Source: Escherichia coli (lineage in GTDB: Bacteria; Pseudomonadota; Gammaproteobacteria; Enterobacterales; Enterobacteriaceae). Taken from it: a stretch of DNA of 64,000 nucleotides. A model generated the notes under the pieces. It saw only the letters and a list, made by a program, of their open reading frames with translations, ran no database searches and was not told the origin of the DNA. Of the stretch, positions 21,284 through 25,760 are shown one piece after another; the stretch's first letter is position 1; every line of letters starts with the position of its first letter. The stretch lies in NCBI RefSeq assembly GCF_044324875.1, contig NZ_CP172185.1; one strand, written 5' to 3'. The translations under genes were made by a program, and so were the position numbers.

Positions 21284-22813
21284 TCACCGTATTCTCTGAA
21301 ACAGGCCCCAAATCGTCCCAATGATATTATTCACTGTCATGTTAGTTGTGCATAACATCCATGTACCAAGCATAGGATCGCCAAATAAAAAGCGGATATC
21401 TGTAAGTTTATCCGATGACGACGACACAATAACGGCCTGTCTGATACGATACCCGGGTATTTCACGGGTATTTGTTACCTCATGATTTCGTTCTATGATC
21501 CCCAGAACATAAGACCCCACGGAATAAACACTTCCGACGCTCGCTGGCCGCCCCGCTTCTCCTCTTGGCCCCTGTGGACCTGCCGGACCGCGTTCACCTG
21601 TATACCCTCTTGGCCCCTGTAGACCTGTCTGCCCGCGTTCACCTGTATCGCCCTTTGGCCCCTGTGGACCTGCCGGACCGCGTGCACCTGTTTCACCTTT
21701 TGGTCCCTGTGGACCACGCTCCCCCTGGGCTCCCAGCTCTTTCCATTCAGACCAGGGGCCATTACCGGTAAAATTACCAGTAACAGTTCTTACGAACTTT
21801 CGTGGTGGGTTCCAGGTTGTATATTCATGCTGGCAATATCCCCATGCACCAACTCTTACCTGAAGATAACCCGCTCTCTGAATCGGATAATTATTTTCTC
21901 GTGTAGCCCCACTGTCTGATGGCTGATAATAATCACCCTGATCGGTCACTCGTCCCAGTCGGTTCAGATCACCATTCAGCAGTTGTCCACGGGCTGACTC
22001 TCCTCTTGGTCCCTGAGGACCTTCCGGACCACGTGCACCTGTTTCGCCCTTTGCTCCCTGTGGACCTGTCGGACCGCGTTCACCTGTTTCACCTTTTGGT
22101 CCCTGTGGTCCTGCCGGGCCGCGTTCACCTGTTTCACCCTTTGCTCCCTGTGGACCTTCCGGGCCACGTTCACCTGTATCCCCCTTTGGTCCCTGTGGAC
22201 CTGCCGGGCCGCGTTCACCTGTTTCACCTTTTGGTCCCTGTGGACCTCCCGGATCTCCTTTATCCCCCTTAGGGCCTTTTTCTCCTCGCTCACCCTTTTC
22301 TCCCTTCAGACCCTGAGGGCCTTCCGGACCACGTGCACCTGTTTCGCCCTTTGCTCCCTGTGGACCTGCCGGGCCGCGTTCACCTGTTTCACCTTTTGCT
22401 CCCTGTGGACCTTCCGGACCACGTGCACCTGTTTCACCTTTTGGTCCCTGTGGACCTGCCGGGCCGCGTTCACCTGTATCGCCCTTTGGTCCCTGTGGAC
22501 CTGCCGGACCGCGTTCACCTGTTTCACCTTTTGGTCCCTGTGGTCCTGCCGGGCCACGTGCTCCTGTTTCACCTTTTGGCCCCTGTGGCCCGGTAATGCC
22601 TCTTTCACCACGAGCGCCGGTATCCCCTTTCTCTCCTCGTGGTCCCCGGGCAGATGCTGCTCGTTTCCGGGCTTCCTCCGCCTCAGATGCCGCGGACTCT
22701 GCTCTGTGCAGTATGGACTGCACCACAGCCTCCAGCTCTGACAACGCCTTCGGATAATAAGGAGCATCTTCCATCTCCATCAGAAATTTATTCAGTGTTC
22801 CCGGTGAAGAATC
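21284..22813 (-). pseudogene. stf: Side tail fibre (Stf), C-terminal 506 codons, separated from its N-terminus by IS66
   Basis: In-frame continuation of fragment 25513..25760 once the IS and one duplication copy are removed (sum 1770 nt = 590 codons); long collagen-like GXY repeats. Confidence 0.85.
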
Positions 22814-22843
22814 GTAAGCGACTCGTCAGAACCGTATTGATAT

Positions 22844-24415
22844 TTACTGAGAGCTCAGATCAACTTTCCAGGGCAACAGATCGCGTACCCGGTTTGCCGG
22901 CCAGTCCTGGATATGTTCAATGACGTAACGCAGCCACTTTTCTGGCTCCACATTGTTCAGACGGCATGTGCCGATCAGCGAGTACAACACCGCCGCATGT
23001 TCACCACCGCTGTCGGAACCCGCGAACATCCAGTTTTTCCGGCCTACGGCCACTCCCCGTAAGGCGTTCTCTGCGATGTTGTTGTCGATTTCCACCCAGC
23101 CATTACTGCAGTACACGTTCAGTGCATCCCACTGTTTCAGCAGGTATGCGAACGCTTTTGCCGTATCTGAGTGACGCGACAGTGTTTTCATCTGTTGCTG
23201 TATCCAGTCATACAGTGACTGCATCAGTGGCGCGGCTCTGGCTTTTCTTGCCGCCAGACGCTGTTCTGCTGAACAGCCCCGGACCTCTGCCTCGATGGCA
23301 TACAGTTCACCGATACGCTGCAGGGCTTCCGTGGTGATGTAGGTGGGCGCTCTTGCATGCACATCGTGGATTTTTCTCCGGGCATGAGCCATACACGCGG
23401 CTTCCGTTATTCTGCCGGATTCGTATAACGCCCGGTAACCACCGTAAGCATCGGCCTGAAGCACACCGCTGTAACCGGCCAGGTGATTTTGTGGATGGAT
23501 ACCTTTCCGGTCCGGACTGTACGCGAACCAGACCGCCGGGGGCATCTGTGAACCGGCGTTACGGTCATCACGGACGTAGACCCACAGCCGGGCTGTCCGG
23601 GTTTTACCGCTGCCCGGCTCCTGGACCGGGACGGGGATATCATCAGCATGGACTTTACCGGGCATCAGCACATACTGGCGCAGGACGTCATACAGCGGCT
23701 CCAGCAGTTCAGCAACAGCACCTGTCCAGCGCCCCAGTGTGGCACGGCTCAGCTCCACTCCCTGACGACGGTATATTTCTGACTGGCGGTATAACGGCAG
23801 ATGGTCTGCATATTTCCCGGTGACAACATGGGCCAGAAGCCCCGCTCCGGCATAACTGCGTGCAATGGGTTTTGAAGGTACTGGTGCCTGCACGATATGG
23901 TCGCACCGGCAACAGGCCTGTTTCGGACGTTGTGTTTCGATAACCTTAAAGGCGCTGCTGATAAGCTCCAGTTGCTCTGACACATCACATCCCAGAGAAC
24001 TGAGTTCACCACCACAGGCAGGACAGCATTCCTCTTCCGGCCGGATAACCCGGGTTTCACGGGGAAGTGAGGCCGGTAACGGTTTACGGGCTGAAGACTG
24101 GCGCAGGGCGGATGGCAGTACCGGGTCATATTGCTCACCCAGCGTTTCCGCCATTTCTTCCTGAAGTGCGCTGATTCGCTCCTGTGCTTCCTGTATCTGC
24201 CGTTCGGTTTTTGCACGAAGTTTTTCTGAGCTTTTACCGAACTGCATACGTTGCAGTTTCGCAACCAGCGCCTTCAGCCGGTTGATTTCGGAAGCATAAG
24301 CCGCCACCCGCTGTGAGAGCAGGCGGTTGTATTCAGCCATCTGGCGGATGGTGTCCTGTTGCGTCTGCAACAGTGCCCGCAGGCGGGCGTTCTCATGAGC
24401 AAGTGAGGTGTCCAT
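22844..24415 (-). CDS. tnpC: IS66-family transposase TnpC
   Basis: 523 aa with leucine zipper N-terminus, CxxC zinc motifs and DDE core typical of IS66 TnpC. Confidence 0.9.
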
Positions 24416-24434
24416 ATCCTCACTTTACAACGGG

Positions 24435-24782
24435 TTATATGCGGATTCCAGCGCGTTCCGTTCGTTTCGGGTGCTTCCAGTTGATACCTTCAAGAAGCAT
24501 GGATAACTGAGCCGGAGTAAGGTGCACCTTGCCGTCACGGGTGACTGGCCAGACGAAGCGGCCCCGCTCCAGGCGTTTGGTGAAGAGGCACAGTCCGTCA
24601 CTGTCAGCCCACAACACTTTTATCTGGTCACCCCGGCGTCCGCGGAAGATGAACAGGTGTCCGGAGAACGGGTCATCCTTCAGGACGTTCTGAACTTTTG
24701 ATGCCAGGCCGTTAAAGCCATTTCGCATATCGGTGATACCTGCAACCAGCCAGATACGCGAACCTGCAGGGAGAGATATCAT
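24435..24782 (-). CDS. tnpB: IS66-family TnpB
   Basis: 115 aa, MISLPAGSRIWLVAGITDMR... characteristic of IS66 orf2. Confidence 0.9.
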   Translation of the reverse strand: MISLPAGSRIWLVAGITDMRNGFNGLASKVQNVLKDDPFSGHLFIFRGRRGDQIKVLWADSDGLCLFTKRLERGRFVWPVTRDGKVHLTPAQLSMLLEGINWKHPKRTERAGIRI

Positions 24783-25459
24783 CAGTGGCTGCTCCCTTTT
24801 ATTTCGCGGATAAGTGTCTGTAATAACGCCGGCGTCAGTTTACCTTTAAGCCTGAGAGTTCCGGCCGGCAGAACCAGCTCACAACACAGACTGTCGGACG
24901 GTGTATTTATCTGCTCTGGTTCCTGTGCGGGGGCCGGGATTTTATTATCCGGCTCCGGCGTTAACGTCACGGGAAGCAGTGCCGGCATATTTTTTCCGGA
25001 AGGCAGCAGGCCACCTTTCCGGTATTGATGGCGCCAGTTGAAGAGCAGGTTATCGTTGATTCCGTTTTCCCGGGCGATCTGCGCCACACAGGCTCCGGGC
25101 TGCAGTGACTGCTCCACTAAGGCGATTTTAAACTCATAAGGGAAGTTGGGCCGCCGGGGACGTTTTTTTACCACGGGGGCTTCGGATATAACGGTGCTTT
25201 CAGGACGTACGACTGGTACCGTGGAAAATTGTCCGTAAAGGCAGGCATCAAGTTCCTGCTCCGACATGCCTGCGGGCAAAGGCCACGAAAGGCCAGCTCT
25301 CCGAAAGCGCACGAACATACTACAAACTGTTGATTTTGGTACACCCAGGCGACGCCCGGCCACAACCCGGGGTAAATGTTCTTCAAAGTGAAGACGTAAA
25401 GCTTCAGTGATCCAGGTCCGGTGTTTCATACGATAGTGTCCATTAAAAATGATGGACAT
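24782..25459 (-). CDS. tnpA: IS66-family TnpA (orf1) with N-terminal HTH extension
   Basis: C-terminal half matches the IS66 orf1 pattern (PNFPYEFKIALVEQSLQPGACVAQIARENGINDNLLFNWRHQY); first in the three-gene IS66 operon. Confidence 0.75.
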   Translation of the reverse strand: MSIIFNGHYRMKHRTWITEALRLHFEEHLPRVVAGRRLGVPKSTVCSMFVRFRRAGLSWPLPAGMSEQELDACLYGQFSTVPVVRPESTVISEAPVVKKRPRRPNFPYEFKIALVEQSLQPGACVAQIARENGINDNLLFNWRHQYRKGGLLPSGKNMPALLPVTLTPEPDNKIPAPAQEPEQINTPSDSLCCELVLPAGTLRLKGKLTPALLQTLIREIKGSSH

Positions 25460-25512
25460 TATTTTTGTAGAGCCGGAGGAAACAGACCAGACGGTTTAAA
25501 TGAGCCGGTTAC

Positions 25513-25760
25513 GAAGAATCCTCCCTGACCACGATATCTCCCACATACGAAGGACGGTAACCTTCTGTATTGAGTGTCACCCTGTATATTCCTGGCTCCA
25601 CATCCATACTGTAACTCCCCGTCTCTTCCGGCATGCCATAAGCCACTGTCGTGGCGATGACTGTCTCGCTGGTTCTCTTCGCTTTCAGCTCAATAATGCA
25701 TCCCGGTACCGGTTTTCCGGTTCCGTCCCTCAGCACGCCTGAAATTTTTACAGCCGCCAT
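25513..25760 (-). pseudogene. stf: Side tail fibre (Stf) N-terminal fragment, truncated by IS66
   Basis: MAAVKISGVLRDGTGKPVPGCIIELKAKR... matches the lambda Stf N-terminus; reading frame runs into the IS and stops. Confidence 0.85.

Follow-up and report, generated by a model that had tools for sequence, protein, structure and literature searches.

The side tail-fibre gene (stf) of a lambda-like Escherichia coli prophage is split by a copy of the IS66-family element ISCro1, and the locus as a whole is very probably explained by transposition of ISCro1 into stf in the course of an IS-driven decay which has presumably left a non-infectious prophage. In the proposed scheme, the ISCro1 copy would have transposed into codons 81-83 of the gene, and a staggered cut would have made the 8-bp duplication typical of the IS66 family. 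The inserted element is already described and common, and a split of this kind is nothing unusual for a decaying prophage; several insertion sequences per prophage are the usual picture of such decay, as in the prophages of O157 Sakai. All positions refer to the window, that is, the whole stretch of 64,000 nucleotides that was analysed (Table 1).

Structure of the interrupted stf gene

The fragments of stf lie on either side of the element, with the octamer GAAGAATC present on both flanks. By in-silico excision of the element and one copy of the repeat (joining 25760..25513 to 22805..21284), a frame of 1,770 nt was obtained, corresponding to 590 codons including the stop, or 589 aa, with no internal stops. 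The in-frame joint, the 8-bp duplication and all the coordinates in the preliminary description were reproduced exact to the base. Chance is excluded as the source of this arrangement, since two given 8-mers agree once in 65,536, the boundaries of the element are exact, and the reading frame is restored.

A survey for the uninterrupted allele, which had been suggested as a check, found it in E. coli ECCNB12-2 (556 aa) and TUM9803 (529 aa). The junction DNA of the repaired gene (ATCGTGGTCAGGGAGGATTCTTCACCGGGAACACTG...) is identical to that of these two natural alleles, and the sole difference between them and the repaired stf is the number of collagen-like repeats. Exact look-up of the two intact alleles returned just 1-2 contigs, which gives no usable denominator; the repaired 589-aa protein and the 498-aa ORF of the 3' fragment have no record by exact look-up, a form of matching that is defeated by the variation in collagen repeat number.

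The 5' stub is an ORF of 83 residues (25509-25760), and its TAA stop comes from the GTAA terminus of the element. The 3' fragment encodes a coiled coil, two collagen-like Gly-X-Y tracts, a globular insert, and a C-terminal domain; no further lesions were found along it, and an ATG-initiated frame of 498 aa remains open downstream of the element (21284-22780).

Table 1. Positions of the stf and J fragments, the insertion sequences, and neighbouring features in the window.
Feature	Position	Strand	Description
DUF4376 gene	20694..21269	-	191 aa; phrog_1141 'tail fiber protein'; downstream of stf
stf 3' fragment	21284..22813	-	codons 81-589 and stop
TSD copy 2 (stf)	22806..22813	.	GAAGAATC
ISCro1 (IS66 family)	22814..25512	-	2,699 bp; imperfect terminal inverted repeats starting GTAA
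ISCro1 tnpC, DDE transposase	22844..24415	-	523 aa; NF033517 477.9 bits (cut-off 180)
ISCro1 tnpB	24435..24782	-	115 aa; NF033819 128.9 bits (cut-off 50)
ISCro1 tnpA	24782..25459	-	225 aa; NF038385 295.8 bits (cut-off 150)
TSD copy 1 (stf)	25513..25520	.	GAAGAATC on + strand, GATTCTTC in stf orientation
stf 5' fragment	25513..25760	-	codons 1-83, within PF08400 phage_tail_N domain; 100% identical to intact alleles
J 3' part	25819..26282	-	encodes entire PF12421 receptor-binding domain; TSD copy ACGAG at 26278-26282
ISSso4-like IS21-family element	26283..28921	-	2,639 bp; istA and istB; interrupts J
J (tail tip attachment protein) 5' part	28922..32371	-	codons 1-1150; TSD copy ACGAG at 28922-28926
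Third IS	57913-59866		prophage early region; TSD GTAAC

The inserted element

The earlier assignment to the IS66 family is supported by tnpA, tnpB, and tnpC, all of which score over their NCBIfam cut-offs, and it can be refined to ISCro1, since all 2,699 bp of the element are 100% identical to copies named ISCro1 by PGAP/RefSeq in many E. coli genomes. Both the length and the 8-bp duplication are those published for ISCro1 (PMC12115866). The two ends, GTAACCGGCTCATTTAAACCGT and GTAAGCGACTCGTCAGAACCGT, both begin 5'-GTAA and match at 22 of their first 40 bases, and the stop of tnpA overlaps the start of tnpB (TGATG). ISCro1 was named first in Citrobacter rodentium and is common on both the chromosomes and the plasmids of E. 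coli, and the copy in stf differs from it by location alone. A near-full-length copy is held by 1,492 genomes, at a median of two and a maximum of 34 places per genome. All three ORFs of the copy in stf are intact and match those of other copies exactly, and the whole element is identical to active-looking copies elsewhere; the insertion would appear to be evolutionarily recent.

Relationship to the lambda side tail fibre

The gene had been described as lambda-Stf-like, and this description holds for the in-frame split, the N-terminal domain, and the position after J, whereas the shaft, the C-terminus, and the product of the downstream gene are not homologues of lambda Stf or Tfa. The first 128 residues of the repaired fibre are 51% identical to lambda Stf (orf-401; E 2e-36), with VVREDSSPGTLNKFL at the repaired junction against TVYEDSQPGTLNDFL in orf-401. 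PF08400 spans residues 3-133 (E 6e-40), and therefore the element lies inside this domain. Likeness to lambda Stf (orf-401/orf-314) thus consists of a homologous N-terminus of ~130 residues and the position of the gene after J. Past residue ~130 no significant alignment to lambda Stf was obtained; collagen repeats (PF01391) are found there instead, so that the shaft, unlike that of lambda, is made of collagen-like Gly-X-Y repeats in variable copy number.

The order J, stf, DUF4376 is common to the window and the intact relatives; in contrast to lambda, lom is absent between J and stf, and a DUF4376 gene takes the place downstream that tfa has in lambda. The DUF4376 protein was considered as a homologue of lambda Tfa and rejected (E 0.043); it probably serves the fibre as a partner or assembly protein. 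The stf gene of lambda PaPa, which reportedly carries a frameshift, is likewise naturally knocked out, although the lesion here is an insertion sequence.

Insertions in J and elsewhere in the prophage

As also described earlier, J is split by an independent insertion, a 2,639-bp IS21-family element with TG...CA termini (TGCAAAATGG...GAATACGCA) and a 5-bp duplication, ACGAG. It encodes IstA and IstB (NF033546, 284.6 bits, cut-off 160; NF038214, 257.6 bits, cut-off 200), and it is 99.6-100% identical to copies of the PGAP-named ISSso4 family, from which its location after codon 1150 of J alone sets it apart. Removal of the element restores a J of 1,302 aa which, compared end to end with an intact J, is 94.6% identical. 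All of PF12421 falls past the break, and the receptor-binding domain is cut off from codons 1-1150. The early region contains a third insertion sequence.

The remaining structural module is colinear with the TUM9803 prophage and 98.7% identical to it. ISCro1 is also found in or next to tail-fibre genes in other defective lambdoid prophages of pathogenic E. coli, inside DUF4376 in TUM9803 and after the stf-like gene in O26 RM10386; however, these are other insertion points than the one in stf, with the duplications GAATGACA and GAGAATAA against GATTCTTC here.

Recurrence at the same target site

In draft assemblies, ISCro1 is found at the identical stf site within other prophage backbones, once (L006) in the opposite orientation. 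Overall, at least three prophage backbones have ISCro1 at this position, one of them in the form of a 98%-identical variant that runs the other way, and ISCro1 has used the stf target at least twice, independently. The octamer GATTCTTC recurs in Escherichia sp. MOD1-EC7003, where it is the target duplication of an ISCro1 copy within an unrelated gene. Among complete RefSeq E. coli genomes, the same stf::ISCro1 junction was found in none of 5,426 (at least 80% coverage, both orientations queried) and the whole 5.7-kb locus had no match; the junction 22-mer had no matches in IMG/VR and JGI metagenomes. Two contigs (L011, L012) were rejected as further insertions, as they just end 2 nt beyond codon 83 in intact sequence, and the top junction matches (H66-H68) were rejected as stf alleles, being unrelated insertion sites selected by ranking.

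A palindromic weight matrix built from 33 ISCro1 flanks holds ~3.4 bits, with the consensus C-N-[G-N-W-N-N-W-N-C]-N-G. With this matrix, the stf site is among the best 9% of positions in the window and ranks 142nd of 1,770 within the gene, and therefore simple sequence preference was rejected as the cause of the recurrence. It is conceivable, although doubtful, that GATTCTTC in the invariant phage_tail_N module is a recurrent (hot-spot) target for ISCro1 in both orientations. The recurrence, which the simple position-weight model does not predict, could be due to the local structure of the DNA or to selection for prophages that lack Stf.

Four of the draft assemblies (L007, L008, L009, L013) have the same junction, the same orientation, and identical IS ends in a different backbone, with a J of 1,169 aa and extra small ORFs. 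This points to another possible origin, namely that the stf::ISCro1 allele arrived already interrupted through homologous recombination between lambdoid prophages sharing a host, the crossovers falling in the N-terminal module of stf, the element, or the downstream region; the 248-nt 5' module of stf, 100% identical in all backbones, would be an ideal substrate for such exchange. However, the duplication and the split gene look alike under either history, and the abundance of ISCro1, together with its independent hit here in reverse orientation, makes repeated de novo insertion plausible too. Import of the allele is accordingly regarded as rather unlikely.

Consequences for the prophage

In the preferred reading, a transposition into stf itself, a functional side fibre could presumably not be made, as the 498-aa downstream frame is without the tail-attachment domain and has no obvious promoter or ribosome-binding site. 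The preliminary description held both tail-fibre systems to be inactivated; both genes are indeed split by independent insertion sequences, while the inactivation itself is what the loss of domains would predict. Expression of the DUF4376 gene, which has the element upstream of it, is probably reduced by polarity.

It might be supposed that the insertion is functional instead, either because the element drives or permits expression of the 498-aa fragment or of the cargo genes downstream of it (DUF4376 and the YadA-like adhesin), or because loss of Stf was selected as in laboratory lambda PaPa. The 498-aa frame is still open, the stf site has been struck repeatedly, and ISCro1 is reported to alter transcription of the neighbouring afa genes; however, in that case the neighbouring transcription was lowered, not raised (PMC8764528). 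No promoter-like site was found at the end of the element next to the 3' fragment, and no obvious promoter or ribosome-binding site was found for the 498-aa frame, with no Shine-Dalgarno sequence near its ATG. The fragment is without the tail-attachment domain, and no particle could use it since J is broken as well. A functional insertion is therefore very improbable. An assembly artefact, in which a copy of an element known to confuse assemblers by its many copies, and at which many contigs break, was misplaced into an intact gene, is more improbable still, since misplacement would give no perfect 8-bp duplication at the exact IS termini and the same junction k-mers are present in independent assemblies.

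Since stf is split, an IS21-family element cuts off the receptor-binding domain of J, and a third insertion sequence is present, the prophage would most likely be a non-infectious, decaying element. It would persist as a carrier of cargo (the YadA-like gene) adjoining the aerobactin/sit island; the window stops at position 64,000, and the left end of the prophage, on the integrase side, lies beyond it.

For annotation, the ORFs at 25509-25760 and 21284-22780 are the two halves of a single pseudogene, and the two pieces of J are likewise one. That ISCro1 has inserted more than once at a single 8-bp target provides a minor lead on target choice in the IS66 family, which is poorly characterised. 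With three insertion sequences, a J without its receptor-binding domain, and no side fibre, the prophage is best scored as defective, and this status bears on the predicted phage mobility of its cargo or of the adjacent aerobactin/sit island.

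Interruption of stf by ISCro1

The side tail-fibre gene (stf) of the lambda-like prophage starts with ATG GCG GCT... at 25760 on the minus strand. Its 5' piece ends with ...GTC AGG GAG GAT TCT TC at 25513, where GTAACCGGCTCATTTAAACCG... opens the inserted element, and the last bases of the element (...GACGAGTCGCTTAC, at 22814) are followed by GATTCTTC ACC GGG AAC ACT. Two copies of the octamer GATTCTTC (GAAGAATC on the plus strand) immediately border the 2,699-bp element, whose termini are imperfect inverted repeats, each beginning with GTAA and identical at 22 of the first 40 positions. 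In-silico removal of the element and one octamer leaves 1,770 nt, i.e. 589 codons and a stop with zero internal stops. In the split gene, the first G of the IS supplies the last base of codon 83 (TCA to TCG, Ser either way) and the following triplet is TAA from the GTAA terminus; therefore, the upstream reading frame stops after 83 residues. The preliminary description was thus correct in its coordinates, the 8-bp duplication, and the in-frame joining (590 codons with the stop), as well as in assigning the element to the IS66 family.

ISCro1 TnpA scores 295.8 bits against a curated NCBIfam equivalog cut-off of 150, and TnpB and TnpC score 128.9 and 477.9 bits against equivalog cut-offs of 50 and 180. 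Full-length copies with 100% identity are present in other E. coli (megablast, 5,426 complete E. coli genomes) and are labelled 'IS66-like element ISCro1 family transposase' in RefSeq, with tnpA and tnpB. Matches occur in 3,017 of these genomes and a near-full-length copy in 1,492, with a median of 2 and a maximum of 34 places per genome. The published ISCro1 is 2,699 bp long with an 8-bp target duplication (PMC12115866). By identity, scores, and the published length and duplication, the element is a standard copy of a known IS and is probably active. The N-terminal HTH of its TnpA is similar to the N-terminus of the neighbouring IS21-family IstA, of which residues 17-81 match the IS66 TnpA model NF038385 (E 9e-15).

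Features of the prophage and its flank in the window
Feature	Coordinates	Strand	Remark
sitCD/aerobactin island	1-17800
Right end of prophage	17856-19968
DUF4376 gene	20694-21269		downstream of stf
stf, 3' piece	21284-22813	minus
Octamer copies	22806-22813; 25513-25520		target-site duplication (TSD)
ISCro1	22814-25512
ISCro1 TnpA	24782-25459
stf, 5' piece	25513-25760	minus
Terminator-like hairpin	25765-25800	minus	between J and stf
Break in match to intact J	28922 to 26283/26282		IS21-family insert
IstA of J insert	27154-28800
Structural module	28.9-53.9 kb
Third IS, IS21 family	57913-59866		1,954 bp
TSD of third IS	57908-57912; 59867-59871		GTAAC

Nature of the interrupted gene and its intact alleles

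The repaired protein carries the prophage tail fibre N-terminal domain (Pfam PF08400, residues 3-133, E 6e-40), so the break after codon 83 falls in mid-domain; four collagen matches (PF01391) follow, and the top PHROG is phrog_366, 'tail fiber protein'. Its first 128 residues are 51% identical to lambda orf-401 (NC_001416; E 2e-36), with no alignment to orf-401 beyond them, and the junction motif previously likened to lambda Stf lies within this stretch. The gene resembles lambda stf in its homologous N-terminal tail-attachment module and its position after J, but differs in its collagen-like shaft and distal end. By module and location, it is of the side-tail-fibre type. The protein encoded downstream (191 aa) belongs to DUF4376 / phrog_1141; comparison with lambda Tfa led to its rejection as a Tfa relative.

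Searching with the in-silico repaired locus recovered the uninterrupted allele whose survey had been proposed, in E. coli strains ECCNB12-2 (556 aa) and TUM9803 (529 aa). In ECCNB12-2, J (1,301 aa) is followed in turn by the fibre, the 191-aa DUF4376 protein, a YadA-like protein, a sigma-like HTH protein, and DinI. The repaired and the two intact proteins align end to end and differ in length only by Gly-X-Y repeat blocks, and both intact alleles are identical to the repaired DNA over the insertion point, with one GATTCTTC. They provide the strongest confirmation that the element entered stf by simple insertion and that stf has no other lesion.

Copy number of the collagen-like tracts varies among the alleles (589, 556, and 529 aa) in steps of 30 aa that keep the frame (3' piece against loci L001 and L003); therefore, the length of the fibre shaft is polymorphic. 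The window and ECCNB12-2 differ in the terminator-like hairpin that follows J: its stem reads GGCGCC...GACGCC, with one mismatch, in the window and GGCGCC...GGCGCC in ECCNB12-2.

Lambdoid prophages commonly carry ISCro1 within or beside their tail-fibre genes; in O26 RM10386 it lies after the fibre gene and in TUM9803 it splits DUF4376, each with a TSD different from that in the window. Lambda PaPa is a familiar example of a natural stf knock-out. The split was well described originally, but it is a known kind of event caused by a known element.

The J gene and the remaining prophage

In-silico excision of the J insert (2,639 bp, opening with TGCAAAATGG, closing with GAATACGCA, and flanked by duplicated ACGAG) restores a protein of 1,302 aa with 94.6% identity to intact J. 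The insert encodes IstA and IstB, both over NCBIfam cut-offs, and is 99.6-100% identical to copies labelled ISSso4 family. J is interrupted after residue 1150, beyond PF09327 but ahead of its C-terminal receptor-binding domain (PF12421, residues 1179-1302); therefore, the truncated J lacks the whole of the latter. The third IS (IstA 340 aa, IstB 260 aa) interrupts an early-region hypothetical ORF. The TUM9803 prophage has this ORF uninterrupted (L047, 5902-6417) and is colinear with the structural module of the window at 98.7% identity.

The island is 99.9% identical to E. coli chromosomes. It is IS-rich, comprises sitCD and aerobactin (iucABCD-iutA) genes, and adjoins the right end of the prophage, where two genes encode a sigma-like HTH protein and a YadA-like trimeric autotransporter of 531 aa. 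Strain SCU-115 has the island joined to this gene pair as well but lacks the remainder of the prophage.

All three IS insertions in the prophage are clean, with the TSD intact in each, and two of them deprive the two host-recognition proteins, Stf and J, of essential parts. Of the earlier claim that both tail-fibre systems were inactivated by independent IS hits, the separate hits stand, whereas the inactivation itself we infer. The side fibre could presumably not be built, because the 3' frame of stf has no attachment domain; neither a Shine-Dalgarno near its ATG nor a promoter-like site upstream was found. Polarity is likely to reduce DUF4376 gene expression, and a particle without the J receptor-binding domain would be non-infectious. 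The stf insertion may be argued to be recent, since the IS is identical to other copies and stf has no secondary decay.

Recurrent use of the stf target

The exact 83-aa stub occurs in 18 contigs of public assemblies. Loci L007, L008, L009, and L013 match the window in junction and IS orientation, on a different backbone (1,169-aa J and small ORFs; L009 heavily deleted). In L007 and L008 an IS3-family element (6317-7732; orfA 168 aa, orfB 287 aa) has in turn split the ISCro1, 68 bp inside the left end of the latter, forming nested insertions. L006 (GCA_005574095.1) has the window-type backbone with intact J (1,302 aa) and a 6.2-kb flank 97.4% identical to the window; its IS (6249-8947), a 98.0% ISCro1 variant, occupies the exact stf position in reversed orientation. 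The far end of this IS lacks the TSD and is followed by an MFS transporter gene. Homologous recombination between IS copies cannot invert an IS relative to its flank; therefore, L006 represents a separate transposition into the same target, which has been hit independently at least twice. The 248-nt 5' module of stf is 100% identical across all these loci and the intact alleles; therefore, the same-orientation cases are not separable into descent and recurrence. Complete RefSeq genomes, IMG/VR, and the JGI metagenomes yielded neither junction type.

ISCro1 flanks (31 left ends from a scan of genome contigs, mostly Escherichia sp. MOD1-EC7003) show a weak palindromic preference of about 3.4 bits, C-N-[G N W N N W N C]-N-G, with C two bases outside and G, W, W, and C at positions 1, 3, 6, and 8. 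A weight model trained on 33 sites (these flanks and two sites from complete genomes) places the stf site no higher than the top 9% of positions in the window. The octamer GAAGAATC also lies beside an ISCro1 left end, as TSD, in a periplasmic-protein gene unrelated to stf (L020, 13077-13114, MOD1-EC7003). Overall, only the repeated hits on a single 8-bp target go beyond the routine, and they amount to a modest clue to how ISCro1 chooses its targets rather than to an established hot spot.
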